Source: Candidatus Omnitrophota bacterium
Lineage (GTDB): Bacteria; Omnitrophota; Gorgyraeia; Zapsychrales; JANLHA01
Direction: 5' to 3'
Assembly: GCA_963662715.1 (NCBI GenBank)
Contig: OY759724.1
Location: 659,136 to 723,135 of the forward strand
DNA length: 64,000 nt
A model generated the notes under the pieces. The model worked only from the letters and a program-made list of their open reading frames with translations, had not been told where the DNA came from and searched no databases. The translations under genes were made by a program, and so were the position numbers. Below are positions 24,252 to 64,000 of the stretch, piece by piece (position 1 is the first letter of the stretch; each line of letters opens with the position of its first letter).

Positions 24252-24268
24252 TGCGTTCTCCGGTGACA

Positions 24269-25493: not shown

Positions 25494-25502
25494 AAACCCG
25501 CT

Positions 25503-26006
25503 CTAAGAATCCGAGGAAAAGGGCAATACTTCCACCAGCCCCCTGACCCCTTCCGTTGTTATTAAAAAACAATCCGTTTCCCGGCAGATATTGGCCTGAA
25601 ATTTTTCAATTTGTCCATCAGGATAAAAGACGACGGACTCTTTGCCTGCCGTTAACTGCATATCATCCGGGACCTCGTCCCGGCGTCCCCACGGACCTTC
25701 CAAAGCCTGAAACTGGCCGCCGTTCTCCTCCCAAGAATCGTCCGGGAAAGACTGTTCAATCCCGTACGTCTGAAACTGGGAGTCAAAAGAGAGCCGCATT
25801 TCAATCCCGCGGGTGATCGCGGCGCTTTGCGCATAACGCATCAAATAGGCCAGTTTATAAGCCGTATTCCGCAACTGGAGCCGCGCCAAGGACACGCTGA
25901 AATGAGGCAAGGAAACCGCTGCTATCACAGCCAACAGGACCACCACAATTAAAATTTCGATTAAAGTGAATCCTTCCTTCAACCTCCGCTCTGCCTCTTG
26001 TATCAT
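25503..26006 (-). CDS. gspH: Minor pseudopilin GspH
   Basis: MIQEAERRLKEGFTLIEILIVVVLLAVIAAVSLP carries the canonical G-FTLIE prepilin motif. The length of 167 aa fits GspH. Confidence 0.6.
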   Translation of the reverse strand: MIQEAERRLKEGFTLIEILIVVVLLAVIAAVSLPHFSVSLARLQLRNTAYKLAYLMRYAQSAAITRGIEMRLSFDSQFQTYGIEQSFPDDSWEENGGQFQALEGPWGRRDEVPDDMQLTAGKESVVFYPDGQIEKFQANICRETDCFLITTEGVRGLVEVLPFSSDS

Positions 26007-26008
26007 CT

Positions 26009-26536
26009 CTACTCCTGCTGCCAGTTGACGACATCGTCATCGCTTTCTATCCCGTCAGATCCATAAGAAAAAAGGTCATAACCTTCTGAATTATGAGCAC
26101 CCGGACACTTATAAACATACTCCTGCTTCCAGGGATCCAGCGGGACGACTTTCTTTTTGAGATACGGCCCGCCCCAATCCTGCGGGACCGGCGCTTCTGT
26201 CGGAGCTTCAATTAAAGCTTTTAATCCCTGTTCTGTTGTCGGGAAACGGCCGTTATCAAGCTCATACATATCCAAGGCCACGGATAAATTGGCCTCTATA
26301 TCAGCAACCGCTGCCGCTTGCTGAGCCTGCGATTTTTTCCCGGAAAAATTGGGAACAACCATAGCGGCCAAAACCCCGATAATAACAACTACGAGCAATA
26401 TTTCCACCAGCGTAAATCCCCTGCAGGTCCGGGCAAGGCCCGCGGCCCGGCGGCCCCTCTTATAAAGTTGAAATGCGATTGCCCCACCCCCCTGATCAAC
26501 TCTCTGATACAGCATGAAAATTATTTCTTTCCTCAT
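26009..26536 (-). CDS. gspG: Major pseudopilin GspG
   Basis: RGFTLVEILLVVVIIGVLAAMVVPNF ... ANLSVALDMYELDNGRFPTTEQGLKALIEAP ... DPWKQEYVYKCPG is the classic GspG sequence. Start set at the ATG with an AAGGGGGA RBS (MRKEIIF). The track ORF begins further upstream. Confidence 0.8.
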   Translation of the reverse strand: MRKEIIFMLYQRVDQGGGAIAFQLYKRGRRAAGLARTCRGFTLVEILLVVVIIGVLAAMVVPNFSGKKSQAQQAAAVADIEANLSVALDMYELDNGRFPTTEQGLKALIEAPTEAPVPQDWGGPYLKKKVVPLDPWKQEYVYKCPGAHNSEGYDLFSYGSDGIESDDDVVNWQQE

Positions 26537-26661
26537 AATGTGTCCCCCTTTTTGATATCTTAAAGATCCCGGGAGAACATCTCGTCCCGGGCATATTTCC
26601 TCTCCCGCGGCATTTACAGTCCGGGACAAAGAGCCTCGCGACAAAGCCGCTGTTATTTTTC

Positions 26662-27894
26662 TCAACGAATAATCAGATTCATCCTGAAAATAGGCAAAAG
26701 CATTCCCAAGACAATAAAACCGATAAACAAACCTAAAACAAGAATCAAGACAGGTTCAATAAGGCTCGTGATTCTTTTCATGGCTCTTTCAGACTGATGT
26801 TCGTAAAATACCGCCAGTTTTGTCAGTCCGACATGTAACTGGCCTGTTTCTTCCCCGATCGCGACCATATTGGCGGCGGCCTCCGGGAAAAGAGAACTGG
26901 CCTGCATCGACTGTGTTAAACTCGCCCCTTCTGTGACCTGCTGCGTCATCTTAGCGATATCCTGCTTCAGGAGTTCATTATCAATGACATGCTGAACCGT
27001 ATCAATGGCTGTGACGACCGTTACCCCGTTGCCCAGCAACGTGCCCAACGTCCTGGCAAACCGGCCTATTTCAACGTCCTTAATAAACTGTCCGATAACA
27101 GGCAATTTCAGTTTCAAACCGTCTATCTTTATCTTCCCTTCCGTCGTGGAATAAAGATGCTTTAAATATACGCCGGTCAAAACACCGGCCCCGATCAGCA
27201 ACCACCAAAAACGGGCCAGGAACCGGCTGACAGCCAGAAGCATCATCGTCACCAACGGCAATGATTCGTTCATATCAATAAAAATCGTCGAGATACGGGG
27301 GATCACCCATGTCAAGATCACAAAAATTGTCACTCCGCCGGCCAGCAGCAAAAAAGCCGGATAGAAAAGACTGGTTCTGACCTGGGCCCGCACATCATAA
27401 TCCTTCTCGACAAAATCAGCGACGCGGTCCAAAACAATATTAAGATTCCCGCCCACCTCTCCTGACCTGATGATATTGACATACAGCGGAGAAAAAAGGG
27501 CCGGGAATTGCGTCAAGGCCGTTGACAACGGCCCTCCCGCCTGAATGACGGAGATCATCTGCTGGGTCATCTGCTTGAAATGCTTATTTTTAATTTGTTT
27601 ATGAACAAGCTGCAGAGCCCGCAAAACAGGAACCCCGGCATTGACGAGGTCACTGAGCTGTCTGGTAAAAATCATAACGTCCTGAACCCGGACTTTCTGG
27701 GCCAACGGGGAAGGAGATATAACATTTTTGATCTTTTTCTGAATCTTTTTATCCGATGTCACTTTAACATCCAGGGGCGTATACCCCGTCTGAAGAAGAC
27801 GGCTGATAGCCATATCAACGTTATCGGCCTCAATCATCCCTTCGATAATTTGTGCGGGCCCCTGTTTAGCCTTATAATAGAAAACCTGTTTCAT
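26662..27894 (-). CDS. gspF: Type II secretion system inner-membrane platform protein GspF
   Basis: 410 aa. It shows two repeated GspF/PilC cytoplasmic-domain units separated by TM helices, and has the typical N-terminus (FYYKAKQGPAQIIEGMIEADNVDMAISRLLQTGYTPLDV). Confidence 0.8.
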   Translation of the reverse strand: MKQVFYYKAKQGPAQIIEGMIEADNVDMAISRLLQTGYTPLDVKVTSDKKIQKKIKNVISPSPLAQKVRVQDVMIFTRQLSDLVNAGVPVLRALQLVHKQIKNKHFKQMTQQMISVIQAGGPLSTALTQFPALFSPLYVNIIRSGEVGGNLNIVLDRVADFVEKDYDVRAQVRTSLFYPAFLLLAGGVTIFVILTWVIPRISTIFIDMNESLPLVTMMLLAVSRFLARFWWLLIGAGVLTGVYLKHLYSTTEGKIKIDGLKLKLPVIGQFIKDVEIGRFARTLGTLLGNGVTVVTAIDTVQHVIDNELLKQDIAKMTQQVTEGASLTQSMQASSLFPEAAANMVAIGEETGQLHVGLTKLAVFYEHQSERAMKRITSLIEPVLILVLGLFIGFIVLGMLLPIFRMNLIIR

Positions 27895-27912
27895 AAATAA
27901 CGCCGTTTCCCC

Positions 27913-29622
27913 TTAGAAATTCTTATCATCCTTCGTCACTCGGATAATTTCACTGGCCGTGGTTTGGCCTTTAACAACCTTTTCCCAGCCGTGCTGCAGC
28001 AGCGACACCATACCTTTATCCCTGGCTTTCCTTGCGATCTGGCTGGCTGTGGCCCGGGACAAAATCATTTCGCGAATCTCTTCATTCAGCGAAAGAAACT
28101 CGTAAATACCTTCCCGCCCGCGGTATCCCGTGAAATGACAAGACTCGCATCCGTCCGCCTCGTAAATCGTCTGCGACGTTTCTATGCGGACCGACGCTCC
28201 GAATATCTTGAGCATGTCTTCCGTAACAGAAGCCGGTTTCTTGCATAAAGGACATAACGTGCGGACGAGTCTTTGCGCGATAAAACACTCCACGGAACTG
28301 CAAATCAGATAAGGCTCCACGCCCATGTCCACAAGCCGGGTTATCCCGCTGGCCGCGTCATTCGTGTGCAAAGTCGAGAAGACCAAATGCCCGGTCAGGG
28401 CTATCTGTGTCGCTATTTCGGCGGTTTCCTTGTCCCGGACTTCTCCGACCATCATGATGTCCGGGTCATGGCGCAGCATGGCTCTCAACCCCTGGCTGAA
28501 CGTCAAGTGTATCGCGGGATTAATCTGTATCTGCGTGATGCCCTTCAACTGATATTCAATAGGGTCTTCTATCGTAATGATCTTTTTATCCGGATGGTTG
28601 ACATGCGCGAGGCAGGAATACAATGTCGTGGTTTTCCCGCTGCCGGTCGGCCCCGTAACAAAGATAATCCCGTGGGGTTTTTGGATCAACTGCTCAAGCA
28701 AAGCCTGCTCTCTGGGGGACAACCCCAGATCATTCATATCATAAAGCCGGTTTGAACTGAGGATACGGATCACGACACTTTCGCCGAACTGGGTCGGCAA
28801 AAATGACACACGGAGATCCAGGTTGATTTCCCCGACCTTAACTTTAAACCGCCCGTCTTGGGGCAGTCTTTTCTCCGCGATGTTCAGGTTGGACATGATT
28901 TTGATCCGTGAATTGATGGCTTCCTTAAAATGCCAGATATTCATAGGAACTTTTGTATCATAAAGAATTCCGTCGACCCTGTACCGGACTTTCAAATCTT
29001 TTTCGTAAGGCTCAATATGGATATCCGTCGCACGATCCTTATAGGCCTCCAGCAGGATCTGGTTGATGAACTTCCCGATTGAGGCATCGGAATCGATTTG
29101 TTCGATATCATCAACGCCCTTATCCTGTTCGTGCACCGCCGCAAACGTTCCCTTCATTTGCGCGATCGTCTCGGCTCCGACCCCGTAATACTGCCTGATG
29201 GCCTCCAGGATATCTTGCTCCCGGGCCAAAACGGTTTTTATTTTTGAAGCATGCACCAAATGAACCCCGTCTTGAATATAAATATTGTGGGGCTGGGCGG
29301 TCGCAATGGTCAAAAGATCCTCTTCCGAATCATAATCGACCGGAATGACTTTATAATGAGTCGCAATGGTGACCGGGATTCTCTGCAGAATACTTTTCTC
29401 AATGCGGAGGAGTTTTAAATCAAGAAAATCCACCCCCAGATATTCCGCCAACAGTCGATACATCCTCTTCTCTTCTTTGATAAAACCCAAATTGAACAAG
29501 ACAACCCACAACAGCTCGTGTGTCGCCTGCTGCTTCAGCAAGGCCTCATCCAACTGCTGTTGCTGGATAAAACCCTGTTCAACAAGCAGTGCCCCGAAAT
29601 CTGTTTCTGTGATGATTTTCAT
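27913..29622 (-). CDS. gspE: Type II secretion ATPase GspE
   Basis: An N-terminal N1E-like domain is followed by Walker A VTGPTGSGKTTTLY, Asp-box, Walker B IMMVGEVRD and a tetracysteine motif (CPLCKKP ... CESCHFTGYRGR). An AAGGGA RBS precedes the ATG. Confidence 0.85.
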   Translation of the reverse strand: MKIITETDFGALLVEQGFIQQQQLDEALLKQQATHELLWVVLFNLGFIKEEKRMYRLLAEYLGVDFLDLKLLRIEKSILQRIPVTIATHYKVIPVDYDSEEDLLTIATAQPHNIYIQDGVHLVHASKIKTVLAREQDILEAIRQYYGVGAETIAQMKGTFAAVHEQDKGVDDIEQIDSDASIGKFINQILLEAYKDRATDIHIEPYEKDLKVRYRVDGILYDTKVPMNIWHFKEAINSRIKIMSNLNIAEKRLPQDGRFKVKVGEINLDLRVSFLPTQFGESVVIRILSSNRLYDMNDLGLSPREQALLEQLIQKPHGIIFVTGPTGSGKTTTLYSCLAHVNHPDKKIITIEDPIEYQLKGITQIQINPAIHLTFSQGLRAMLRHDPDIMMVGEVRDKETAEIATQIALTGHLVFSTLHTNDAASGITRLVDMGVEPYLICSSVECFIAQRLVRTLCPLCKKPASVTEDMLKIFGASVRIETSQTIYEADGCESCHFTGYRGREGIYEFLSLNEEIREMILSRATASQIARKARDKGMVSLLQHGWEKVVKGQTTASEIIRVTKDDKNF

Positions 29623-29666
29623 AATCCCTTCTTCATGTTTTCATCCGGCCCGCCTTAATCAGCCCT

Positions 29667-31586
29667 TTAAAAATGCCGGTCCTCCTGAGCCAGAACAATC
29701 GCCAGGTTCTTTTGGGCGCTCTCATAACGAGGATCAATACGCAAAGCTTCCTGGAAATGATAGACAGCATGAACGGTCTCTCCCTGTTTCATATATATAG
29801 CACCGACGCTGTTATGCACCAAAGCGTTATCCGGATGATAAATAAGAATCTCGGAAAAATGCTTGCGGGCCTTTTCCAGAGCCCCTTGCTTCATATATAA
29901 ATCTCCCAAAACACTATGAATATATAAACTGTCCGGTTGACCGGCCAACGCCTGCAGATACATTTCCCGGGCTTGCTCGGGCTTGTTCTGAAGCACATAG
30001 AAGTTCCCCAAATTCTTTAATGTTTCCGGATCACGACTGTCCAGAGCGCGGGCTTTCAGCAAATATTTCTCCGACAGCTCATATTGTCCTTCTTCCATAA
30101 GAAGAACACCGTAATTGCTGTTGGCTTGCGCATACTCAGGATTCAACCGCAGGGCCTGCTCATAAAAAACTTTTGCCCTTTTTAAGTCTCTTTCTTCATA
30201 AAATATATTCCCAAGATTATTATAATTTCGAAAATTTTCCGATTGAAACAACGCGGCATCCAGAAAATGCCTTTTCGCCGGCTCTTTTTTCCCGTCTTTA
30301 AGATAGGCCAATCCCAGGTTATAATGCGCAACCGGATGACGGGGGGCATGCCGCAAAACAAATCCCCATAAAGAATAGCCGTTGTTCCAGACCCGGCTCT
30401 GCTGAAAGGTCCCCAGCGCCATCCCTCCGATGATGAATACCGCGGCGACATTCAAGGATATCCTCTGAATCCTGTGGCTGGCCGTTGCGGAAGCCAGCCT
30501 CTCATACAGAATCCCGCATAGGATACAGAAGCCTAAACAGGGCAAATACATAAACCTGTCCGCCACGGGATTGAGCCCGGAGGAAACGGGATCCGTACGC
30601 AACAGGAAAAAAATCGACACCAGGTAAAACAGGAAAGAAAAATGCAGCCATTTGTTACAGTTTTTAGTGAGTAAAAAAAGGACCAGCAAGGCACATGCCA
30701 GCAAAGATAAAAAGTACGGCACATGGGTCCAGGACACAGGGAGCGGGTAAAAATAAAGCGGGGAGAGATGAACCGGGAGAAAGAATTTGTAAACATAAAA
30801 AACAAACGACCACAGCCATAATAAAATATTTACCGAGACCGGGCTGCCGGGGCTCCCCCCCATATTCAGCCTGTAGGTTATCCACGCTACGGGAACAGCG
30901 TATAACACAAAAGGGATTTTTTCCTTCAAAACTTTCCCGCACAATCTCCTGCCGCGGAACCAATCGCAAACAAGAAGCGCAAGAGGCAGACTCACCGCCA
31001 TAGGCTTGGACAGCATGCCCAGGAATCCGAATAATATAGCAGCATAGTAGGGTCTTCTTTCTCCTGTCCGGATAAAATTCATATACTGCACCAGAGCCAG
31101 CATATAAAAGAACGCGTACAGCACATCTTTCCGGGCGCTCATCCAGGCAACAGGTTCGACGTGTATGGGATGAAGGCCAAAAATCAGGGCAGCTGCACCG
31201 GCAGCCCTGGCGGATGCCCCCAGCTGAAGGGCGAACTTATAGACGAGACAAACCACGCCTATATGAAGCAGCAGATTATCGAGATGATAGACAATCGGAT
31301 TCTCTTGAAAAAAAAGATGTTCCAGGGAGAAAGACAGGATCGTTAACGGGATATATATATCGCAAACTGTACTCTTGAAGATCCGGACAATATTGCCCAG
31401 GCTGAATTGACGGGCCATTTGATTCCATTCAAAATTATTCTGATCATCCCAGACAAAATGCCCCGTTAAAACCGGCCCATAAGCGGCCAGTATCAGCACA
31501 ATCCCTAAAAAAAGCCGTCCCCGGCCGGGAGATAAAAAAGAAATCTTTTTCATAGAAAGACGCATAAAATGAATCGCAATCTGCAT
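29667..31586 (-). CDS. TPR-repeat membrane protein with GT-C-like (PMT/TMTC-like) N-terminal polytopic domain
   Basis: The N-terminal roughly 400 aa contains about 10 TM helices. It has a DD-type motif (HFVWDDQNNF) in the first periplasmic loop, as in GT-C glycosyltransferases of the PMT/ArnT type. The C-terminal roughly 230 aa consists of TPR repeats (NLGNIFYEERDLKRAKVFYEQALRLNPEYAQA...). The start could be ATG 31586 or ATG 31553. Confidence 0.55.
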   Translation of the reverse strand: MQIAIHFMRLSMKKISFLSPGRGRLFLGIVLILAAYGPVLTGHFVWDDQNNFEWNQMARQFSLGNIVRIFKSTVCDIYIPLTILSFSLEHLFFQENPIVYHLDNLLLHIGVVCLVYKFALQLGASARAAGAAALIFGLHPIHVEPVAWMSARKDVLYAFFYMLALVQYMNFIRTGERRPYYAAILFGFLGMLSKPMAVSLPLALLVCDWFRGRRLCGKVLKEKIPFVLYAVPVAWITYRLNMGGSPGSPVSVNILLWLWSFVFYVYKFFLPVHLSPLYFYPLPVSWTHVPYFLSLLACALLVLFLLTKNCNKWLHFSFLFYLVSIFFLLRTDPVSSGLNPVADRFMYLPCLGFCILCGILYERLASATASHRIQRISLNVAAVFIIGGMALGTFQQSRVWNNGYSLWGFVLRHAPRHPVAHYNLGLAYLKDGKKEPAKRHFLDAALFQSENFRNYNNLGNIFYEERDLKRAKVFYEQALRLNPEYAQANSNYGVLLMEEGQYELSEKYLLKARALDSRDPETLKNLGNFYVLQNKPEQAREMYLQALAGQPDSLYIHSVLGDLYMKQGALEKARKHFSEILIYHPDNALVHNSVGAIYMKQGETVHAVYHFQEALRIDPRYESAQKNLAIVLAQEDRHF

Positions 31587-31631
31587 ATGTTTATGACACG
31601 ATAAACCTGTTAATATATCCCTGCCGAACGG

Positions 31632-33203
31632 TTATTTCTCCTGAAGCTCCGGGATGAAAAAGATGATATACTCCGTACGGAGAATAAATCTGTTTTCACT
31701 GCGAAAGATAAAGCCAAAAAGGGGCAAATCGCCCAGGAGGGGAACTTTAGACGTTTTTTCAACTTCTTTTTCTCTCAACAATCCCCCCAGAATAATCACG
31801 TCCGCCCCGTCGATCGGCAGTTCCGCAGAAACCTGCGGCTGAAACGGCTTGTCTGAAGAAGCCTCCAGCGTCGGACGATTATCGGCCAGCCAGTGAAGAT
31901 GCGGACTCAGCCGGACAAGATATTTCTTTTCCGGAAGGGCATTGACCAGAATTTTCATCTTCATGGCAAACCCTTCATCATCCTTAAAATCCCCGGGGAC
32001 ATTCATCGTGTCCCAGCCCCATTCCTTCTCACTATTTAACTGGGAGACCCCGGAAAAATCGTTCAAATCAATAAGCTGGCCCGCGGCATCTAAGGCGTCT
32101 TTTAAGACAGGAAAATCTTCCTTCGTAATTGTGCCCAGGCTCAACCGGTTCTCCTCAGGTGAGCCGTTCTGTTGATCCCCTAAAATATCAAAATTTTTAT
32201 AATCGGAAACAATGGCGTCCCAGTCAATGCCCCCCTGATGTTCCTCATTCAGTTGAATTCTCGAAACCTGGATGCGCCAACGGACTTTAATAAGTTTATC
32301 CAGGTCCTGAATCATTTGCTCAATCTCCGATATTTTCTGCGCCGTATCCGTCACGGTTACGGAATTCGTGTCCCCGTCAAGAACAAGCTGCCCCAGATCT
32401 TCGGTGAGTGTCTTGGAGATCTTCTCCACGACAATGTCCGCCTTAACAAACTGGAATGAAAACACCTTTGTGACCAGGGGCGGGGTATCCCAGGACCGCA
32501 GCAAAGATTGCATTTGCTTCAAGGGTTCTTCGCTGTCCATAAGAATAAGCTGCTGGTTCTTTTCATCAGCGAAAAAATGTCCTTTAAGGCTCTTCAGCTG
32601 CACCAGATTCTTTTTCATGTCATCCACGGAACGGTATTCCAGTTTAATAACTTCAACCTGTGTTTCCGGGGCAAAAGGACGCCCCATCTTCTGTTCATAC
32701 TCTTCCCGGGAAACAACACGAATGACCTGCTCCTCCTGCATATAAGCCAAGTCACTCATCAACGTCACGACGGACAATAAATTCTCAAGGGAAACATCCT
32801 TTAAGCACAAAGTGATAAACCGAGTCGGCAGGACATCAGCTTCAATATTTAAATGGCTCTTTTCTGTCAAAACTTTTATGACATCCGACAAAGGGGTCCG
32901 GGCAAAATCCACTTCGGATATGACCCGATCCCACTCGTCTTCCATTCTCTTATCTTCTTCCGGGGCAGCGGCAGGACTGACAGCGACAGCCCGCTGGACA
33001 TCCAACTCTATGGTAAAAAATTCCTTCGTCTTACCCGGGGAAAGCCCCTCCTGTTCCGGAACAGTTTCGTTCATCGGGACCGGCAACGAATCGTCGGAAG
33101 AAACAATTTCATTTTTAAGCGATGGAATCCGGGCCCCGGATTCTTCCGCATACACTTCAGCCCCTAAAAAAAGGCAAACAAGAAAAAGACAAAAATATCG
33201 CAT
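31632..33203 (-). CDS. Divergent secretin-family outer-membrane protein (second secretin)
   Basis: A signal peptide (MRYFCLFLVCLFLGAEVYA) and N-domain-like segments are followed by a C-terminus alignable to the gspD secretin domain (GGIDWDAIVSDY ... KYLVRLSPHLHWLADNRPTLEAS ... DVIILGGLLREKEVEKTSKVPLLGDLPLFGFIFRS ... EYIIFFIPEL). Compare gspD: GVDWEAIVRDY ... IKLYVTPTIHRD ... TIVIGGLIKD ... VPVLGDVPLVGMAFRNRD ... EIVIFLTPKL. Confidence 0.55.
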   Translation of the reverse strand: MRYFCLFLVCLFLGAEVYAEESGARIPSLKNEIVSSDDSLPVPMNETVPEQEGLSPGKTKEFFTIELDVQRAVAVSPAAAPEEDKRMEDEWDRVISEVDFARTPLSDVIKVLTEKSHLNIEADVLPTRFITLCLKDVSLENLLSVVTLMSDLAYMQEEQVIRVVSREEYEQKMGRPFAPETQVEVIKLEYRSVDDMKKNLVQLKSLKGHFFADEKNQQLILMDSEEPLKQMQSLLRSWDTPPLVTKVFSFQFVKADIVVEKISKTLTEDLGQLVLDGDTNSVTVTDTAQKISEIEQMIQDLDKLIKVRWRIQVSRIQLNEEHQGGIDWDAIVSDYKNFDILGDQQNGSPEENRLSLGTITKEDFPVLKDALDAAGQLIDLNDFSGVSQLNSEKEWGWDTMNVPGDFKDDEGFAMKMKILVNALPEKKYLVRLSPHLHWLADNRPTLEASSDKPFQPQVSAELPIDGADVIILGGLLREKEVEKTSKVPLLGDLPLFGFIFRSENRFILRTEYIIFFIPELQEK

Positions 33204-33334: not shown

Positions 33335-34672
33335 TTATTCTTTCAAATCAGATTTAAACTTATCCAGTTGTTGCCGCGAATAAACATTGTCAGGGTATTC
33401 CCTCACCAAACCTTCTTCAATATCAATGGCTTCCTGTATCCGCCCCATTTTGTAAAGGACCTCGGCTTTGGTATCTAAAAAAGCAAAATTATCCGGATCC
33501 AAAGTCAGGGCCTTATTTATCAATTCAAGCGCACGGGGCAAATGGATGTCATTTTCAGCATAAATCCAGGCCAAATCATTATAAGGCCCCGGAGATGAAG
33601 GTTGATGGTTAATGCTTTTAAGCAACAGCGTTTCTTTACCCTTGAAGTCAAGCTCGTGATACTGTTGTTGAAATTCAAAATAAGTCGGATTACTCATCGC
33701 AAAAATGACAATAGAAATAAAGGTCATGCCGCCGTTGTAAACATAATGCATAATAATCCCCGGGATAGCCGATCCCGTACGCATTCTCTGTAAAGTCAGG
33801 ATCAAACCCAGGACGGCCACCACCAATATGGCCAGCCAATCCCCCCAATATTGTTCAACGTGCAGCAAGGCAAAGAGGCATGGAATGATAATGATCGCCG
33901 CCTTTTTTCCTTTGATCTTCTCCAGGATATAATAAAAATACCCCCGGAAAAGAATCTCCTCCAGGAAAGGCGCCATAAAAACCGCAACAATCATCAACGC
34001 CGGGAAGACCCACATGGCCGTTGTTGATTCAGCAAGCTGGCTGAGCGGAGTGGCCGGCTGGGTTTCCCGCGAATAAATAATCCAGCTGGAAATCCCCGCC
34101 ATGCAGGCACCGGCCAAAAACGGCACGACGGTCAATTTCCACCAAGAAAGATTATGCCGCTTAAGCCCGAGTATTTCCAGGAACGATATGGACGTATACT
34201 TATGCACGGAACGCCGGATAATCCATAAAAGAACAAGCGGGGAGGCGGCAGAAATAACCACAACTTCCCCCAGTTCGGATTGCAGCGGCGGGTAAAGGCT
34301 GTAAAGGATCTTAAGCCCCAACGTAAACAGGGACATCCATACAGACCATATCAGGATTGATCCCAAAAGGTCCACGGACAGGGAAAGACGAAGCCCAAGG
34401 ACCTCCGGGTCCTTTCTTTCCCCGGGCAAATGTCTTGTAAAGCCATACCGTTTAACCAAATAAACCGGAAGGACAAAAAAGAAGCAATACGTTGAAAGCT
34501 GTGCCCACTGCTGAGAAAAAACGAATGCGATCAGAAGTAAGAATCCGTACACGGCCACAGGCCAGGTCAGGGTCTGAAAATATTTTTTATACAGGGCAGG
34601 ATCTTGTCTCCTGATAACGAAAGAATCAAGATAAAGGAACCCAAAAACAATTAATAATAAAACCGGAGACAT
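33335..34672 (-). CDS. CPBP-family intramembrane glutamic endopeptidase (CAAX protease/Abi) fused to C-terminal TPR domain
   Basis: A polytopic N-terminus carries the CPBP motifs EEILFRGY (motif 1), LFALLHVEQY (motif 2) and HYVYNGG (motif 3). The C-terminal roughly 110 aa are TPR-like (YNDLAWIYAENDIHLPRALELINKALTLDPDNFAFLDTKAEVLYKMGRIQEAIDI). A strong AAGGAAG RBS is present. Confidence 0.65.
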   Translation of the reverse strand: MSPVLLLIVFGFLYLDSFVIRRQDPALYKKYFQTLTWPVAVYGFLLLIAFVFSQQWAQLSTYCFFFVLPVYLVKRYGFTRHLPGERKDPEVLGLRLSLSVDLLGSILIWSVWMSLFTLGLKILYSLYPPLQSELGEVVVISAASPLVLLWIIRRSVHKYTSISFLEILGLKRHNLSWWKLTVVPFLAGACMAGISSWIIYSRETQPATPLSQLAESTTAMWVFPALMIVAVFMAPFLEEILFRGYFYYILEKIKGKKAAIIIIPCLFALLHVEQYWGDWLAILVVAVLGLILTLQRMRTGSAIPGIIMHYVYNGGMTFISIVIFAMSNPTYFEFQQQYHELDFKGKETLLLKSINHQPSSPGPYNDLAWIYAENDIHLPRALELINKALTLDPDNFAFLDTKAEVLYKMGRIQEAIDIEEGLVREYPDNVYSRQQLDKFKSDLKE

Positions 34673-56143: not shown

Positions 56144-57550
56144 TTACAATAATTCCTGCTGTGGGCCGGCTGAATCTTGCTGCGGACGCGCCATAAAAAT
56201 CAGGGCCAAGACGGCCAAAGGGAAAAAATGCAGAATCAGGCGGGAAAGCGTCGTATCTCTCTGCTCAATCCAGATATAAGCGTTTGTGCAAAGAAACAGA
56301 AGAAACAGAATAACAAAAAACAAGGTCATGCAAAGGCAAAACCATTTGAAAAAAGGATGAATTTTTGAGCGGAACGAAAAAAACGAGCTGAAAACAAGCA
56401 AACTCCATATGACGTTCCAATTCCCGCTCCAGAATAATTCCTGAATAAGCTTGCTGAAAATAAACGGAATCCGGGCCAAATTCTGCCGACCGAGTTCATA
56501 AACAACCCCGACAGACATGCCTTGTCTCATAAATTTAAACAACGGGAAGAGCAGAGATATCCCCAAACACGGGAAAATAAAGTTTAAAGCCGTTTTCATG
56601 CGACGGCCGGACAAAGATTTGTCCGAAAACAGCAGGCCAACGAATAAAGCTCCGTAAACCAAAAGATAGGCCATGCCCTCCCGTTTTGTAAATGTGGATA
56701 TCCCGGCGAATACCCCGGCGAGGACCAAAAACCGGGTCTCTTTCTCCGCATACCACAAGAAAATCATCATAAGGGTGACACAGTTATAAACCATCAGAGT
56801 AAAATCCATATATCCTAATGAAGCATGCAGGGCAAAAAGATTGGATGTAAACAACAAGCCGACACTCCACAAAGCCCGTCTGCTGTTTAAAAAGTAATTC
56901 ACAAATTCATAGTGAATCACAATATAAGAGAGAAGATAAAAAGGGATAAAAACTTTAACAATCTGGTCACTCCAATAACCTAAATTCAAAACCATCCATG
57001 TCTGCAAGAGAGAGACATGCAGAGGATACCCCCGGTACAGAATATCCTGCGGTAAAACAATATTTTTGTTAAAGAAAAAAACTTTGGCATTAAGAGTGTT
57101 AATTTTCAAGGGGTCAAATCCATAAACGGGAATATGAAAGGCGCGCCAGAAAATATAAACACACTGAAAAACCACAAAAAGGATAATAATGATGTCTAAG
57201 AATTCCCAATAAATCTCATAAGGAGATGGTCGGGATAACTCTTTCCGCACCAAATCCTCATTAACAGCACCTTGCTGTCCCTGCCCAGACCGTTTCTTAG
57301 AAACACTCCTTATGATTCCTATAAAAATCAAGCCAAGCAAGAAAAGATGAAGCCCCTGCCCGGCAAACGAACCTCCCAGCATATTCCAGGATAACATTAC
57401 AATCGTCAAAATCCCGGTGCCCAGAATAAACGAGAGGGATATCTTAGCGGGGACCGTCAGCTCCTCCCTGGGAAAAAGAAAAGACAAAGAAACAGACCCT
57501 ATAAGCCAGGGGATAAAAAGAGCAATACCTATCGCAAAGCCCGGGATCAT
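56144..57550 (-). CDS. Hypothetical polytopic membrane protein
   Basis: 468 aa with at least 11 hydrophobic segments. The start ATG overlaps the upstream gene stop (ATGA). Confidence 0.4.
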   Translation of the reverse strand: MIPGFAIGIALFIPWLIGSVSLSFLFPREELTVPAKISLSFILGTGILTIVMLSWNMLGGSFAGQGLHLFLLGLIFIGIIRSVSKKRSGQGQQGAVNEDLVRKELSRPSPYEIYWEFLDIIIILFVVFQCVYIFWRAFHIPVYGFDPLKINTLNAKVFFFNKNIVLPQDILYRGYPLHVSLLQTWMVLNLGYWSDQIVKVFIPFYLLSYIVIHYEFVNYFLNSRRALWSVGLLFTSNLFALHASLGYMDFTLMVYNCVTLMMIFLWYAEKETRFLVLAGVFAGISTFTKREGMAYLLVYGALFVGLLFSDKSLSGRRMKTALNFIFPCLGISLLFPLFKFMRQGMSVGVVYELGRQNLARIPFIFSKLIQELFWSGNWNVIWSLLVFSSFFSFRSKIHPFFKWFCLCMTLFFVILFLLFLCTNAYIWIEQRDTTLSRLILHFFPLAVLALIFMARPQQDSAGPQQELL

Positions 57551-58290
57551 CGCCGCCCTCCCTGTCTTACAGCCATGAGACTCTTGTGATCATAAGGAGA
57601 AAACCAGTGAAATCCGGGAGGCAGAGCCTTAAAAGGCTCATCTTTCATAAACATAATGAGAACGTCAGGGTCACTGATATCGGGTTTTAAAATATCGATA
57701 GGGTAAAGGAAATACGCAAGTTCTGTTTTCCAGAACAACCCCAGGCCCTTCTCAAGATACAAATCACTTAAAAGACGTGCCCGGGCATACCCTGATATGT
57801 GTTGATGACAGTAGCGGGAAAATCCATAGGTTTGTTTATAAATTTGGGCATATTTATTCTGAACATCTTCGCCTTTGAAATGCTGATATTCAAAGGCGAA
57901 TTGTCTAAGCTGAAATTTCACCTGGAAAAATGTTAATATAAAAAGCATAATCCAGGCCCCTGTCTTGAGTGTCTTTAATCCCTTTCGGAGAAAAAAGCGG
58001 GGGGAATTGTCTGCATGACGCCTGTTTCTGTAAGCCAGCCAGAGGGAAGAAAAAAAGATCAAAGCATACCCATACCACAAAATATTCAACGGGCCAATCT
58101 GACGATAGAGACAACGGTTGGGCGTCATGGCATAAAAAGTATCAATGAAGGAAACCATGGGAGAAGACGTATGCCAGGTAAAAGGAAAAAAAACAACAAA
58201 CAAAACAAACAACACAATTCCGACTCCCAGCTTGATTGTGCGGGGTAACGTTTTCTGATCTTCTTCTTTATTATGGAAAGCAGCTGCCAT
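57547..58290 (-). CDS. Hypothetical membrane protein
   Basis: 247 aa with several TM helices. It is co-transcribed (4-nt overlap) with 56144..57550. Confidence 0.4.
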   Translation of the reverse strand: MAAAFHNKEEDQKTLPRTIKLGVGIVLFVLFVVFFPFTWHTSSPMVSFIDTFYAMTPNRCLYRQIGPLNILWYGYALIFFSSLWLAYRNRRHADNSPRFFLRKGLKTLKTGAWIMLFILTFFQVKFQLRQFAFEYQHFKGEDVQNKYAQIYKQTYGFSRYCHQHISGYARARLLSDLYLEKGLGLFWKTELAYFLYPIDILKPDISDPDVLIMFMKDEPFKALPPGFHWFSPYDHKSLMAVRQGGRR

Positions 58291-58788
58291 TGATACGGCC
58301 TTTAAAATTTAAAAATTTTCGAGATCATTATCAACCACCCATATCTTTTAGGCTAATTCACCTTAAAGGAAAAAACCTTAAAGTAAAATAAACAACTTCT
58401 ATGATATTCATTTTAAAACGTTCTTACCAGTAAAATTAATACTATTTAGGAAGCCGCTTGAGAAATACATTCTTAAAGTGTTTAGGGCATCGGGGCCTAA
58501 TTAATTTTTAAAGGAACTTCCAAGTATTTCACCTCTTAATATATTTATATGATATGTTTAACATATTGTTGATGTTAAAAATAATAGACACACATCCATG
58601 CATACCTGTCCAGGACTGTCCTAGACTGAGCAAAAGAGGCAAGAACAGAAAAACACGAATTATGAACAAATATTTCACAAAACAATAAATTTACTCCATT
58701 AATTAATATTTGGTACATTTCTTGCTTGTAATTAATACGTTAACTTCGCATCACAGCAAAAATATATATCAATTTAGGAGGTTTTTCA

Positions 58789-59577
58789 ATGAAACAGTCA
58801 CTTAGAAACATCAGCATCATCTTTTTAGCGGTTATAGGAGTTGTGGCTCTGACCAGCAGCCCGGCTTCAGCACAAGCTGCCGCAACAATTCCAGTTGACC
58901 TGGAATTGAGTTTGGTTATTGACATTTCCGGAAGTGTCAGCGCTTCTGAATATGCAACACAAATCCAGGGTTATGGAAATGCTTTTAAAAGCGCTGCTGT
59001 TATCAATGCCCTTGATAACGGACAATACGAACAAATCGCCGTTAATGTCGTATTCTACAGCGGTAGCGCCGCGGAAGTTGTGGAATGGACTCTCGTTGAC
59101 CAATCCAACTCCTCTGCTTTTGGGGACACGCTTATTGCTTTAGCCGACCCAAACAATCTGGGCAGCTTGACCGGTGTGGCCAATGCCATTGATACAGCCG
59201 ACAATCTGTTTTTCACCAATATCTACGAAGGTGACAGACTTGTTATGGATGTTTCCGGTGACGGAATTGAAAACGTAGACAGCGTAGCAGACGTTTTAAG
59301 TGCACGCGATATCGCCCTGGCCTTGGGAATTGATGCCATCAACGGTCTTGTTATTGATGATGAAACCGGTGTCGTGGATTTTTATGCTGACAACGTCGTT
59401 GGAGGAGACGGGGCTTTCTTACTCGTTGTTGATTCTTTTGATGATTTGCAGCCGGCTATCATTGAAAAACTCGCCAGAGAAATCGGCGATGATCCTGTTG
59501 TCCCTGAACCAGCCACTCTTTCCCTGTTAGGCTTTGGCTTAATGGGATTAGCTGGTTTCAGAAAAAAGAGAAGCTAA
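58789..59577 (+). CDS. von Willebrand factor A-domain protein carrying a PEP-CTERM sorting signal
   Basis: A signal peptide is followed by the vWA MIDAS motif DLELSLVIDISGSVS and the TADN / DGIENVDS motifs. The C-terminus VPEPATLSLLGFGLMGLAGFRKKRS has the PEP motif, a hydrophobic helix and a basic tail, which together define PEP-CTERM. Strong TAGGAGG RBS. Confidence 0.75.
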   Translation: MKQSLRNISIIFLAVIGVVALTSSPASAQAAATIPVDLELSLVIDISGSVSASEYATQIQGYGNAFKSAAVINALDNGQYEQIAVNVVFYSGSAAEVVEWTLVDQSNSSAFGDTLIALADPNNLGSLTGVANAIDTADNLFFTNIYEGDRLVMDVSGDGIENVDSVADVLSARDIALALGIDAINGLVIDDETGVVDFYADNVVGGDGAFLLVVDSFDDLQPAIIEKLAREIGDDPVVPEPATLSLLGFGLMGLAGFRKKRS

Positions 59578-59893
59578 TATAATTATATATATTTATGAAA
59601 CTCCACGGCCTCACGGCCGTGGTTTCTTAACTATTTTGACTGTGCAAACGCAGCTAAAATTCTATCTGCGTTTGTCCTCGGTCTTCCCGGCCTTGATATT
59701 CGATGTATCGCTTTATCGATTCTTCGTCGGCTCCAACCGTTGACACAAAATACCCTGCTGACCATATCCTGAGTTATCCCGCCATAAATACAATAAACAG
59801 CATATCGCACAAACCCATGGGAACAAAATATCGCAGGGAAAGCATTCACAGCAAGGCAGGATGACGACAAGGCATGATTCACTGCACGGGATT

Positions 59894-62800
59894 TTATTCT
59901 GACACACAATCATAACACTGAATAGCAGATTGGCCATCCTGTCCCGAATAGGTAAACAAAATAATACTTGTTTTTAGACACTGCTCTGTTTCCTCACAAG
60001 AAGAACAGTCAACATACAAGCCCTCTCCCACACAACGCTTATCTCCTTTTTCAAACCTGCATTCGAAGCAAGCTTCTCCGCTGGACAATGTCTTGGCAAA
60101 AGTGCAGTTAGGACAATTTTTGCACTCTTTCTCCGTTAAATAACCTATCGAACTGCAGGTTTCCTTCTTTTTCTGACATATATAACATTGTTCTCCTTGT
60201 TTAGTCCTTTTTGTCCCTTCACATTCCTTTTTCGAATCGGATTTGCAGGCAAGACATTCTTGCTCCGTTAACAGACCGAGATCCGAACAAAGCTGTGGTT
60301 TCTCCTCGCAGCTGTAACACTGCCGGCCTTCTTTGGTCTTCTGATCTTTCTTACACTGATTCTTAGGATCCTCTTCACACAGAGAACATTCCTCTTCAGA
60401 AATTAAACCAAGATCGATACATTCTTCCGGTTTATCCATACAGCCGTAACATTGTTTCCCTTCCCTGGTCCTCTGATCTTCGACACATTCCTTCTTCGGG
60501 TCTTTGGTGCAAATCGCGCACTCTTCTTCAGCCAGCAATCCAAGGTCGACGCATGCTTCCGGCTTGTCCATACAGCTGTAGCATTGCCGGCCTTCTTTAG
60601 TTTTCTGATCCTCGACACATTCTTTCTTCGGGTCTTTGGTGCAAATCGCGCACTCTTCTTCAGCCAGCAATCCAAGGTCGACGCATTCTTCCGGTTTGTC
60701 CATACAGCTGTAGCATTGCCGGCCTTCTTTAGTCCTCTGGTCTTCGACACATTCCTTCTTCGGATCTTCGACACATACCGCGCATTCCTCCTGTGACAGC
60801 AGACCTAAATCTTCGCACTCTTCCGGCTTATCCATACAGCTGTAGCATTGCCGGCCTTCTTTAGTCTTCTGGTCTTCGACACATTCCTTCTTCGGATCTT
60901 CGACACATACCGCGCATTCCTCCTGTGACAGCAGACCTAAATCTTCGCATTCTTCCGGCTTGTCCACACAACCGTAACATTGTTTCCCTTCCCTGGTCTT
61001 TTGATCCTCGACACATTCCTTCTTCGGGTCTTCGGCACATACCGCGCATTCCTCCTGTGACAGCAGACCTAAGTCTTCGCATTCTTCCGGCTTGTCCATA
61101 CAGCTGTAGCATTGCCGGCCTTCTTTAGTCTTCTGGTCTTCGACACATTCCTTCTTCGGATCTTCGACACATACCGCGCATTCCTCCTGTGACAGCAGAC
61201 CTAAATCGACGCATTCTTCCGGCTTGTCCACACAACCGTAACATTGTTTCCCTTCCCTGGTCTTTTGATCCTCGACACATTCCTTCTTCGGGTCTTTGGT
61301 GCAAATCGCGCACTCTTCTTCAGCCAGCAATCCAAGGTCGACGCATTCTTCCGGCTTGTCCATACAGCTGTAGCATTGCCGGCCTTCTTTAGTCCTCTGG
61401 TCTTCGACACATTCCTTCTTCGGATCTTCGACACATACCGCGCATTCCTCCTGTGACAGCAGGCCTAAATCTTCGCATTCTTCCGGCTTGTCCACACAAC
61501 CGTAACATTGTTTCCCTTCCCTGGTCTTTTGATCCTCGACACATTCCTTCTTCGGGTCTTCGGCACATACCGCGCATTCCTCCTGCGACAGCAGGCCTAA
61601 ATCTTCGCACTCTTCCGGCTTATCCATACAGCTGTAGCATTGCCGGCCTTCTTTAGTCTTCTGGTCTTCGACACATTCCTTCTTCGGATCTTCGACACAT
61701 ACCGCGCATTCCTCCTGTGACAGCAGACCTAAATCTTCGCATTCTTCCGGCTTGTCCACACAACCGTAACATTGTTTCCCTTCCCTGGTCTTTTGATCCT
61801 CGACACATTCCTTCTTCGGGTCTTCGGCACATACCGCGCATTCCTCCTGTGACAGCAGACCTAAATCTTCGCATTCTTCCGGCTTGTCCATACAGCTGTA
61901 GCATTGCCGGCCTTCTTTAGTCCTCTGGTCTTCGACACATTCCTTCTTCGGATCTTCGACACATACCGCGCATTCCTCCTGTGACAGCAGACCTAAATCG
62001 ACGCATTCTTCCGGCTTGTCCACACAACCGTAACATTGTTTCCCTTCCCTGGTCTTTTGATCCTCGACACATTCCTTCTTCGGGTCTTTGGTGCAAATCG
62101 CGCACTCTTCTTCAGCCAGCAATCCAAGGTCGACGCATTCTTCCGGTTTGTCCATACAGCTGTAGCATTGCCGGCCTTCTTTAGTCCTCTGGTCTTCGAC
62201 ACATTCCTTCTTCGGGTCTTTGGTGCAAATCGCGCACTCTTCTTCAGCCAGCAATCCAAGGTCGACGCATTCTTCCGGTTTGTCCATACAGCTGTAGCAT
62301 TGCCGGCCTTCTTTAGTCCTCTGGTCTTCGACACATTCCTTCTTCGGATCTTCGACACATACCGCGCATTCCTCCTGTGACAGCAGACCTAAATCTTCGC
62401 ATTCTTCCGGCTTGTCCACACAACCGTAACATTGTTTCCCTTCCCTGGTCTTTTGATCCTCGACACATTCCTTCTTCGGGTCTTCGGCACATACCGCGCA
62501 TTCCTCCTGCGACAGCAGGCCTAAATCTTCGCACTCTTCCGGCTTATCCATACAGCTGTAGCATTGCCGGCCTTCTTTAGTTTTCTGATCCTCGACACAT
62601 TCCTTCTTCGGATCTTCGACACATACCGCGCATTCCTCCTGCGACAGCAGACCTAAATCTTCGCATTCTTCCGGTTTATCCATACAGCTGTAGCATTGCC
62701 GGCCTTCCCTGGTCTTCTGATCTTCGACACATTCCTTCCTCGGGTCTTCGACACATACCGCGCATTCCTCCTGTGACAGCAGACCTAAGTCTTCGCATGC

Positions 62801-64000
62801 TTCCGGCTTGTCCATACAGCTGTAGCATTGCCGGCCTTCTTTGGTCTTCTGATCTTCGACACATTCTTTCTTCGGGTCTTCGACACATACCGCGCATTCC
62901 TCCTGTGACAGCAGACCTAAATCTTCGCATGCTTCCGGCTTATCCACACAGCTGTAGCATTGCCGGCCTTCTTTGGTCTTCTGATCTTCGACACATTCTT
63001 TCTTCGGGTCTTCGACACAAATCGCGCACTCTTCTTCAGCCAGCAATCCAAGGTCGACGCATGCTTCCGGTTTATCCACACAGCTGTAGCATTGCCGGCC
63101 TTCTTTAGTCTTCTGATCTTCGATACATTCCTTCTTCGGGTCTTCGACACATACCGCGCATTCCTCCTGTGACAGCAGACCTAAATCTTCGCATGCTTCC
63201 GGCTTATCCACACAGCTGTAGCATTGCCGGCCTTCTTTGGTCTTCTGATCTTCGACACATTCTTTCTTCGGGTCTTCGACACATACCGCGCATTCCTCCT
63301 GTGACAGCAGACCTAAATCTTCGCATGCTTCCGGTTTATCCACACAGCTGTAGCATTGCCGGCCTTCTTTAGTCTTCTGATCTTCGATACATTCCTTCTT
63401 CGGGTCTTCGACACATACCGCGCATTCCTCCTGCGACAGCAGGCCTAAATCAATACATTCTTCCGATTTATCCATACAGTTGTAGCATTGCCGGCCTTCC
63501 TTGGTCTTCTGATCCTCGACACATTCCTTCTTCGGGTCTTTGACACATACCGCGCATTCCTCCTGTGACAGCAGACCTAAATCGACGCATTCTTCCGGTT
63601 TATCCATACAGCTGTAGCATTGCCGGCCTTCTTTAGTTTTCTGATCCTCGACACATTCTTTCTTCGGGTCTTCAGCACATACCGCGCATTCCTCCTGTGA
63701 CAGCAGGCCTAAATCTTCGCATGCTTCCGGTTTGTCCATACAGCTGTAGCATTGCCGGCCTTCTTTGGTCTTCTGATCTTCGACACATTCTTTCTTCGGG
63801 TCTTCAGCACATACCGCGCATTCCTCCTGTGACAGCAGGCCTAAATCTTCGCATGCTTCCGGCTTGTCCATACAGCTGTAGCATTGCTGACCTTCTCTGG
63901 TCTTTTGATCTTCGACACATTCCTTCTTCGGGTCTTCGACACATACCGCGCATTCCTCCTGCGACAGCAGGCCTAAATCAATACATTCTTCCGGCTTGTC
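59894..64000 (-). CDS. Giant acidic cysteine-rich tandem-repeat protein, 3' portion (5' end beyond window)
   Basis: An open minus-strand frame runs from the window edge to the stop at 59894. The body is about 30 copies of a 44-aa unit CYSCMDKPEECEDLGLLSQEECAVCVEDPKKECVEDQKTKEGRQ with six Cys per unit in two CxxC pairs. The final roughly 180 aa are degenerate repeats ending ...QCYDCVSE. The track start at 63871 is only an internal Met, because identical repeats continue to 64000. Confidence 0.7.
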   Translation of the reverse strand, partial: DKPEECIDLGLLSQEECAVCVEDPKKECVEDQKTREGQQCYSCMDKPEACEDLGLLSQEECAVCAEDPKKECVEDQKTKEGRQCYSCMDKPEACEDLGLLSQEECAVCAEDPKKECVEDQKTKEGRQCYSCMDKPEECVDLGLLSQEECAVCVKDPKKECVEDQKTKEGRQCYNCMDKSEECIDLGLLSQEECAVCVEDPKKECIEDQKTKEGRQCYSCVDKPEACEDLGLLSQEECAVCVEDPKKECVEDQKTKEGRQCYSCVDKPEACEDLGLLSQEECAVCVEDPKKECIEDQKTKEGRQCYSCVDKPEACVDLGLLAEEECAICVEDPKKECVEDQKTKEGRQCYSCVDKPEACEDLGLLSQEECAVCVEDPKKECVEDQKTKEGRQCYSCMDKPEACEDLGLLSQEECAVCVEDPRKECVEDQKTREGRQCYSCMDKPEECEDLGLLSQEECAVCVEDPKKECVEDQKTKEGRQCYSCMDKPEECEDLGLLSQEECAVCAEDPKKECVEDQKTREGKQCYGCVDKPEECEDLGLLSQEECAVCVEDPKKECVEDQRTKEGRQCYSCMDKPEECVDLGLLAEEECAICTKDPKKECVEDQRTKEGRQCYSCMDKPEECVDLGLLAEEECAICTKDPKKECVEDQKTREGKQCYGCVDKPEECVDLGLLSQEECAVCVEDPKKECVEDQRTKEGRQCYSCMDKPEECEDLGLLSQEECAVCAEDPKKECVEDQKTREGKQCYGCVDKPEECEDLGLLSQEECAVCVEDPKKECVEDQKTKEGRQCYSCMDKPEECEDLGLLSQEECAVCAEDPKKECVEDQKTREGKQCYGCVDKPEECEDLGLLSQEECAVCVEDPKKECVEDQRTKEGRQCYSCMDKPEECVDLGLLAEEECAICTKDPKKECVEDQKTREGKQCYGCVDKPEECVDLGLLSQEECAVCVEDPKKECVEDQKTKEGRQCYSCMDKPEECEDLGLLSQEECAVCAEDPKKECVEDQKTREGKQCYGCVDKPEECEDLGLLSQEECAVCVEDPKKECVEDQKTKEGRQCYSCMDKPEECEDLGLLSQEECAVCVEDPKKECVEDQRTKEGRQCYSCMDKPEECVDLGLLAEEECAICTKDPKKECVEDQKTKEGRQCYSCMDKPEACVDLGLLAEEECAICTKDPKKECVEDQRTREGKQCYGCMDKPEECIDLGLISEEECSLCEEDPKNQCKKDQKTKEGRQCYSCEEKPQLCSDLGLLTEQECLACKSDSKKECEGTKRTKQGEQCYICQKKKETCSSIGYLTEKECKNCPNCTFAKTLSSGEACFECRFEKGDKRCVGEGLYVDCSSCEETEQCLKTSIILFTYSGQDGQSAIQCYDCVSE
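60400..64000 (-). repeat. Near-identical 132-bp in-frame tandem repeat array with higher-order periodicity of about 792 bp
   Basis: The DNA motif ccggcttgtccatacagctgtagcattgccggccttctttagtcttctggtcttcgacacattccttcttcgg... recurs every 132 bp. Sets of six units recur at 792-bp spacing (antisense track ORFs 60861/61653 and 61125/61917 are offset by exactly 792). Confidence 0.8.

Follow-up and report, generated by a model that had tools for sequence, protein, structure and literature searches.

A PEP-CTERM gene with a vWA-type DUF1194 domain behind an AT-rich divergent spacer carrying a putative sigma-54 promoter in Candidatus Omnitrophota

We analyzed a gene encoding a 262-aa protein, together with its flanking DNA, in a stretch of 64,000 nucleotides from a Candidatus Omnitrophota bacterium; this whole stretch is referred to below as the window. 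The gene forms a single-gene unit, and the features of the locus are listed in Table 1. Upstream, on the opposite strand, it is adjoined by a divergent gene (57547..58290, minus strand) encoding a membrane protein without a family match, and the next minus-strand gene encodes a membrane protein with a weak PMT_2/GT-C-like match. Downstream lies a convergent ORF with Cys repeats, as reported in an initial annotation of this DNA, and the terminator-like hairpin is located between the two. Elsewhere in the window, we found housekeeping genes and a T2SS/T4P-like cluster, together with genes for TPR proteins and for response regulators of a single domain.

Table 1. Features of the DUF1194-PEP-CTERM locus, with coordinates in the window
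Feature	Coordinates	Strand	Basis
Divergent membrane-protein gene pair, 247 aa and 468 aa	56144..58290	-	ORF list, Pfam/NCBIfam, relatives
AT-rich divergent intergenic region, 498 bp, 29.1% GC	58291..58788	.	ORF list, GC count
Candidate activator (enhancer-binding protein) site, 10-nt x2.3 repeat CTGTCCAGGA CTGTCCTAGA CTG	58605..58628	+	Tandem Repeats Finder (TRF), conservation; function inferred
Sigma-54 -24/-12 promoter-like element TGGTACATTTCTTGCT	58711..58726	+	Pattern match, conservation in relatives
Shine-Dalgarno sequence AGGAGG, 7 nt ahead of ATG	58776..58781	+	Read from sequence
DUF1194(vWA)-PEP-CTERM gene, 262-aa product, single-gene unit	58789..59577	+	ORF list; Pfam and NCBIfam matches
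Predicted Sec signal peptide, residues 1-28	58789..58872	+	Sequence inspection only
DUF1194/vWA-fold domain, MIDAS D45, S47, S49, T128, D158	58894..59487	+	PF06707, alignment, AlphaFold2, Foldseek
PEP-CTERM sorting signal VPEPATLSLLGFGLMGLAGFRKKRS	59500..59574	+	PF07589, TIGR02595
Intrinsic-terminator-like hairpin followed by T-rich tail, 3' of the gene	59603..59622	+	8 pairs, 7 G-C

The N-terminus of the protein has the appearance of a Sec signal peptide: on inspection, MKQSLR is followed by a hydrophobic core and by A-S-A ahead of Q29 (ASA/Q). Residues 1–30 had low pLDDT values, about 51–54, in the AlphaFold2 model of the protein. The central part was assigned to DUF1194 (PF06707), which spans residues 36–233 with an E-value of 1.5e-44 and a score of 152.2 bits against a gathering score of 27; the match is nearly full length (profile positions 2–203 of 206). 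The classical Pfam models VWA and VWA_2 remained below threshold on this protein (17 bits). The AlphaFold2 model, built with 35 homologues, had a pLDDT of 85.8 and a pTM of 0.78, and the 50 matches listed by Foldseek against the PDB were all vWA-fold domains (E-values of about 1e-8 to 1e-6, target TM-score ≤0.72), with SpaC, TRAP, the integrin alpha-M I-domain, and vWF A3 at the top, all with a probability of 1.00. The residues of the DxSxS...T...D MIDAS (D45, S47, S49, T128, and D154/D158) were invariant in the alignment of the 35 homologues. The structural model confirmed a predicted vWA (Rossmann-like alpha/beta) fold despite the sub-threshold scores of the VWA models, and the vWA MIDAS motif read from the DNA in the initial annotation was upheld by the domain match, the model, and the alignment alike. 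DUF1194 has been described as a vWA-like MIDAS fold whose function is still unknown (bioRxiv 10.1101/2024.09.26.615229).

The last residues of the protein (238–262 of 262) read VPEP-ATLSLLGFGLMGLAGF-RKKRS and are followed by the stop codon, so that a PEP motif, a hydrophobic stretch, and a basic cluster succeed one another; the AlphaFold2 model places a helix at residues 243–258. The tail had been called a textbook PEP-CTERM signal, with failure of a PEP-CTERM HMM named as the finding that would speak against it; it scored above both curated cut-offs, with 29.3 bits against 20.7 for Pfam PF07589 (residues 238–259) and 26.2 bits against 16 for NCBIfam TIGR02595. NF033554 was also matched, but in the tail only and with 26 bits where 80 are required. 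A regular-expression search over the 64-kb window found this PEP-CTERM tail as the only one. A profile search with a 48-aa tail query returned two unrelated short proteins, and the genomic context of one of them (locus L094) was uninformative.

A total of 170 homologues of the protein were found, and many of them share the DUF1194 and PEP-CTERM architecture. This combination is widespread, occurring, e.g., in Nitrosococcus, Paremcibacter, and many metagenomic proteins; the architecture is, therefore, not new.

The window contains 49 ORFs with a length of 120 aa or more; all were compared with Pfam, and those left unannotated were also compared with NCBIfam. None of the 49 matched an exosortase model, in agreement with the earlier statement that no exosortase is encoded in the window. 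Neither rpoN nor a sigma-54 activator (PF00158) nor PrsK, PrsR, or PrsT was found among the same ORFs. The absence of the exosortase, rpoN, PF00158, and Prs genes from the window was counted against the explanation preferred below. No relevant literature on Omnitrophota with exosortase, PEP-CTERM, or rpoN was found. From the tail and its analogy with known systems, we infer that the 262-aa protein would depend on an exosortase.

The gene encoding EF-G, 3.8 kb from the vWA gene, was 82–83% identical at the protein level to Candidatus Omnitrophota proteins, and among its 120 best matches the named proteins were almost all from Omnitrophota/Omnitrophica. Syntenic relatives were reached through the EF-G homologues at 83% identity: loci L082 (GCA_964489065.1), L083, L084, L085 (GCA_029559195.1), and L086, to which L095 was added later. 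Their gene order is EF-G, CheD, a 467-aa membrane protein, a 198–237-aa membrane protein, a divergent spacer, a 253-aa VWA-PEP-CTERM protein, and the convergent Cys-repeat ORF. In more distant Omnitrophota (EF-G 68–73% identical), the locus was absent. Between window and relatives, the neighboring genes had identities of 52–83%, with 52–54% for the divergent membrane-protein pair.

The 253-aa protein of the relatives occupies the same locus and shares with the window the promoter, the candidate activator site, the signal peptide, and the tail, but its central domain comes from another vWA family: it matched PF00092 (VWA) with 30.1 bits and had no DUF1194 match. Comparison of the two proteins gave 61–64% identity for the signal peptide, 72% for the tail, and about 30% for the vWA core, the latter over 84 alignable residues. 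The DNA behaved in the same way, with identities of 0.6–0.75 over the codons of the signal peptide and tail and of 0.3–0.45 over the center. The retention of the tail and signal peptide beside a core that is not conserved speaks for selection on a functional sorting signal and lends indirect support to the presumed exosortase dependence.

Among the intergenic regions of the window that exceed 60 bp, 23 in number, the spacer between the divergent genes had the lowest G+C content (29.1% against 46.0% for the window as a whole), and intergenic DNA across the window was generally AT-richer. Tandem Repeats Finder identified two tandem repeats in it, a 15-nt repeat in 1.9 copies (58360–58388) and a 10-nt repeat in 2.3 copies (58606–58628). 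The remaining repeats were short two-copy families at chance level, so the many short A/T direct repeats of the initial annotation were only weakly borne out. The corresponding spacer of the relatives is about 300–420 bp long, and the distal ~170 bp of the window spacer have no counterpart there.

A search with the pattern TGGYAC-N5-TTGCW over both strands of the 64 kb gave a single match, the element in front of the vWA gene, where 0.11 matches were expected. This element agrees with the sigma-54 consensus TGGCAC-N5-TTGCW at 10 of 12 positions, has its GG and GC dinucleotides 10 nt apart, and ends 62 nt ahead of the ATG. Its -24 half reads TGGTAC, with T in place of the consensus C, which was counted against the sigma-54 assignment. 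The syntenic element of the relatives (L082–L086 and L095) reads TGGCACAATTATTGCT or TTGGCACAATTATTGCTT and agrees at 11 of 12 positions, i.e., it is nearer to the consensus than that of the window. From the position of the GC dinucleotide (58724–58725), transcription is predicted to start near 58737; the leader would then measure about 50 nt and not 500.

Upstream of this element, a second conserved block was found. Positions 58602–58626 (ATACCTGTCCAGGACTGTCCTAGAC) were 76% identical to the relatives, whereas the rest of the aligned spacer was 45–47% identical; the block coincides with the 10-nt x2.3 repeat and lies in the only GC-rich island of the spacer (58591–58640, 52% GC). The footprint of the sigma-54 element and the upstream block is supported by only three independent sequences. 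The center of the repeat block precedes the -24 GG by ~97 nt in the window and by ~85 nt in the relatives, and enhancer-binding proteins normally sit at such a distance upstream of -24. The 10-nt repeat in the GC island is a candidate activator site, as judged from its conservation and position. A consensus scan found no IHF-like site between it and the promoter. In a metagenome scan with the combined pattern of activator site and sigma-54 element, a single additional ortholog of the locus (L095) was recovered, but no promoter of a paralog.

The upstream regions of DUF1194 genes in other taxa were surveyed at 74 loci; the products of most of them end in a PEP-CTERM-like tail. The upstream gap had a median of at least 231 bp and exceeded 400 bp at 22 of the 74, and these regions were GC-poor, with a median drop of 7.5 points. 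Sites with at least 10 of 12 consensus positions and invariant GG and GC were sought within 250 nt upstream. Such sigma-54-like sites occurred on the sense strand at 14 of the 74 loci, whereas windows drawn at random from these loci gave an expectation of 0.37, i.e., a ~38-fold excess, and at none on the antisense strand; most of them lay 29–113 nt ahead of the predicted start. Another Omnitrophota locus encoding a DUF1194-PEP-CTERM protein (L022) was without a sigma-54-like site, which was counted against the assignment.

These observations are in line with what was described for PEP-CTERM genes in general. More than 65% of them are single-gene operons with more than 200 nt of upstream non-coding DNA, which is not accounted for by hidden ORFs (Haft et al. 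2006, PMC1569441). In Proteobacteria, the upstream region contains a 17-nt box ending in TTTACA (motif 1), a spacer of ~63 nt, and a sigma-54 motif (motif 2) averaging 71 nt before the start codon; motif 1 lies 32–92 nt upstream of motif 2, and these motifs are paired with PrsK/PrsR/PrsT in the genome (PMC1569441). Shared upstream motifs were confined to Proteobacteria, and other phyla were without them (PMC1569441). RpoN-dependent transcription of a PEP-CTERM gene was demonstrated in Aquincola (PMC9850573). In our survey, motif 1 (TGTCR-N6-TTTACA) was found at at least 10 proteobacterial homologue loci, ~60 nt upstream of the sigma-54 site, and no TTTACA was present upstream of the sigma-54 site in either the window or the relatives.

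Taken as a whole, the explanation that we regard as probable is that of a gene for a PEP-CTERM vWA protein of the adhesin type, located behind enhancer-type sigma-54 promoter DNA that lies between two divergent units. RNA polymerase with sigma-54 would bind the -24/-12 element, and an ATP-dependent activator on the 10-nt repeat, ~90 nt upstream, would open the promoter and switch the gene on, with looping possibly favored by the A/T-rich intervening DNA. Transcription starting near 58737 would yield an mRNA with a short leader. The 262-aa product would be exported via Sec and retained in the inner membrane by its C-terminal helix until an exosortase, cutting it at the PEP motif, passes it on to the outside or the exopolysaccharide, by analogy with the PEP-CTERM/exosortase system; outside the cell, its MIDAS site would bind a ligand via a divalent cation. 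As part of the same probable explanation, the product is a secreted surface or matrix protein of the adhesin type with a predicted metal-binding site and a PEP-CTERM sorting tag. The regulated expression suggested in the initial annotation is very probable.

Three other explanations were considered. According to the first, the spacer is a common sigma-70 promoter region serving the two divergent units, its sigma-54-like hexamers arose by chance, and the tail is a mere membrane anchor in a genome without an exosortase. The spacer is indeed divergent, the intergenic DNA of the window is AT-richer in general, and sigma-70-like hexamer pairs are present, one at 58558–58585 and another, in minus orientation, close to the divergent gene (58334–58306); moreover, both exosortase and rpoN are postulated for the genome, and L022 is without a sigma-54 site. 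However, the sigma-70-like matches in the spacer numbered 5 against 5.1 in shuffled sequence, i.e., they were not in excess. The sigma-54 element is kept, and is nearer to the consensus, in relatives whose surrounding DNA has diverged to less than half identity, and the excess of such sites at homologues is confined to the sense strand. The P-E-P motif and the tail, in turn, are kept across the replacement of the domain between the signal peptide and the tail. On balance, sigma-70 promoter DNA with a simple membrane anchor appears improbable.

According to the second, which we consider very improbable, the gene and its AT-rich flank were acquired recently as an island from elsewhere, and the low G+C content is due to foreign origin or xenogeneic silencing and not to an enhancer architecture. 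The DUF1194 core of the window has 47–50% identity with its counterparts in other lineages and phyla, i.e., it is nearer to them than to the protein encoded at the same locus in the relatives, and the distal part of the spacer cannot be aligned with the relatives; both would fit a foreign origin. Against it, the G+C content of the gene (46.4%) is the same as the window mean, no integrase, tRNA, or flanking repeats were found adjacent to it, and the relatives have the same order of genes as well as a conserved promoter, signal peptide, and tail. Since these are kept, a replacement would have affected no more than the central domain and not the locus as such.

The comparison points to a replacement of the central domain within a conserved frame of promoter, signal peptide, and tail, which fits the protein sequences better than vertical divergence. 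The gene would, thus, be a mosaic in which the ends that direct targeting were conserved and the vWA core was exchanged, a neat small case of a surface protein with a replaced domain. A broader interpretation, possible but on the whole unlikely, is that the locus constitutes a fixed expression-and-sorting frame (the sigma-54 promoter, a clade-specific enhancer repeat, the signal peptide, and the tail) in which vWA-type adhesin domains, DUF1194 in the window and classical VWA in the relatives, are exchanged by recombination, and that it belongs to a sigma-54 regulon distinct from PrsK/PrsR. If so, this would mean modular switching of surface-adhesin specificity in Omnitrophota, a phylum suspected of host-dependent lifestyles.

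According to the third, also very improbable, all 498 bp are transcribed as a long 5' leader, and the gene is controlled after initiation by a small RNA or small ORF, a riboswitch, or an attenuator within it, as the length and AT-richness of the spacer and its short ORFs of 44–51 aa could suggest, but no Rfam family was found in the spacer at E≤1, the conserved sigma-54 element lies just ahead of the ATG, the presumed 5' UTR is the least conserved portion of the spacer (25–32% identity to the relatives), indels of 2–15 nt run through the short ORFs in the relatives, where the spacer can be only ~300 bp long, and Haft et al. likewise saw no missed ORFs in such regions (PMC1569441). The initial annotation was correct in reporting a long AT-rich non-coding region; its reading of this region as a leader is probably wrong because the region is divergent and the conserved sigma-54 element leaves only ~50 nt for a leader.

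With the preferred explanation of a sigma-54-dependent PEP-CTERM vWA gene, the locus can be compared with known systems. It resembles the PEP-CTERM/exosortase (EpsH/XrtA) system (PMC1569441) in its C-terminus, where the PEP motif is followed by a hydrophobic helix and a basic cluster and which is recognized by TIGR02595 and PF07589, in the signal peptide, and in the organization of the gene, which stands alone after an extended non-coding region with a sigma-54 motif at 62 nt (mean of 71 nt there). It differs in its host, a member of Omnitrophota, and in the absence of the PrsR box (motif 1), in whose upstream position a different conserved 10-nt repeat is found. Other DUF1194 proteins, among them those associated with T11SS in Rhodobacteraceae (bioRxiv 10.1101/2024.09.26.615229), are alike in the full-length DUF1194, the Rossmann-like vWA fold, and a MIDAS starting about 10–17 residues after the signal peptide. 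The protein studied here has a PEP-CTERM tail, where such proteins may stop at the end of the domain or be lipidated, and no T11SS/DUF560 gene was found nearby. The pepA gene of Aquincola tertiaricarbonis and Zoogloea (PMC9850573) is also a stand-alone PEP-CTERM gene with a -24/-12 promoter and an upstream enhancer, the latter being a candidate in our case; PepA, however, is without vWA, its regulator is PrsK/PrsR, and its host is a betaproteobacterium.

The gene is, thus, a typical PEP-CTERM gene, and the mild extension is that, in Omnitrophota, the probable sigma-54 promoter is accompanied by another kind of upstream box. The rule formulated in 2006 for PEP-CTERM genes (a single-gene unit, a long enhancer-type region, and a sigma-54 promoter) would also hold at an Omnitrophota locus, outside Proteobacteria. 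The CWGWCC-N2-GA repeats ~90 nt upstream of -24 provide a concrete cis-element with which the regulon and its activator can be searched for. The importance of the locus is modest, and it opens no long-standing question.

The suggested functional link between the vWA gene and the Cys-repeat ORF was not supported: they are separate convergent units, and no Cys-repeat homologue was found near any of the 80 DUF1194 loci of other taxa. No conserved neighbors over these 80 loci were common with the window except generic T2SS and TPR genes (L022, L025). The adjacency of the two genes is kept in the close relatives, but so is the entire 17-kb region. The products of both the vWA gene and the Cys-repeat ORF are predicted to be exported.

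Regarding the syntenic locus in related Omnitrophota, the central vWA domain of the PEP-CTERM protein belongs to different families: DUF1194 in the window versus PF00092 in the relatives. In spite of this difference, the promoter, the signal peptide and the PEP-CTERM tail were kept between them; at the sequence level, this looks like an in-place replacement of the central domain.

Features in the window and at comparison loci (L082–L086 and L095, syntenic loci of related Omnitrophota; L021, DUF1194 homologue locus of another taxon)
Feature	Location	Strand	Remark
Central vWA domain, DUF1194 family	window 58894-59487		
Central vWA domain, PF00092 family	L082 1164-1925; L084 1365-2126; L095 6229-7005		relatives
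Cys-repeat ORF	window 59894-64000	-	reaches window edge
Cys-repeat syntenic orthologue	L083 2193-3494		
Two overlapping membrane-protein genes	window 56144-58290	-	divergent from PEP-CTERM gene
Near-palindrome GTGTGAAAATATTACACAAA	L095 5998-6020; also L082, L084-L086		
TTGTGAAAATATTTTCACAA	L021 about 9780-9800		Desulfobacula DUF1194 locus
Sigma-54-like site TGGCATGTGCCTTGCT	window 30685-30700	-	11/12
GAF-domain PEP-utilising enzyme (PtsP / EI-Ntr-like)	window 7188-9545	-	
Type II secretion / type IV pilus-like cluster	window 18670-33203		
Rce1-like CPBP intramembrane protease fused to TPR repeats	window 33335-34672		after secretion/pilus-like cluster

In the relatives, the -24 element is preceded, at a distance of ~175 nt, by a near-palindrome. 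At the unrelated Desulfobacula locus, TTGTGAAAATATTTTCACAA precedes a 12/12 sigma-54 site by ~55 nt; the window has TATTTCAC only, in two copies 146 nt apart (58521-58547 and 58667-58693). Judged from these sequences, the near-palindrome may either mark the site of a second regulator or be coincidental.

Upstream of proteobacterial DUF1194-PEP-CTERM genes (loci L005, L019, L024, L045, L047-L050, L054, L063, L069 and L071), TGTCR-N6-TTTACA was followed, after a spacer of ~60 nt, by TGGCAC-N5-TTGCT. This two-motif region is the same as that of Haft et al. 2006 (PMC1569441); the PrsR box was re-derived here independently, from the DUF1194 protein family alone.

The convergent Cys-repeat ORF is a tandem array of 27.1 copies of a 132-nt unit, extending up to the window edge. 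Its reading frame was not closed at base 64000; therefore, the ATG listed at 63871 does not mark its true start, and the protein has more than 1368 aa. In the relatives, the orthologue has only 433 aa and ~8 repeats, and its signal peptide contains LFSC, which resembles a lipobox. Over the C-terminal 268 aa, window and relatives share 62-68% identity, indicating a large repeat expansion in the window genome.

The divergent membrane-protein pair was retained in the relatives (52-54% identity). The 468-aa protein resembled PMT_2 / GT-C glycosyltransferases only weakly (E=1.3e-3, under the cut-off), and no family was matched by the 247-aa protein. A putative part of the pair in glycosylating or handling the adjoining surface protein is conceivable.

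Nitrogen-PTS proteins such as PtsP / EI-Ntr are usually found alongside rpoN; the PtsP / EI-Ntr-like enzyme is thus a weak hint of sigma-54 in the window's genome. The sigma-54-like site TGGCATGTGCCTTGCT lies within a TPR gene (29667-31586), with the GspE-like ATPase gene ~1 kb downstream, and its sequence may reflect either chance or an internal promoter. The secretion/pilus-like cluster comprised two secretins, PilM/N/O-like and GspE/F/G/H/K-like genes, and pseudopilins.
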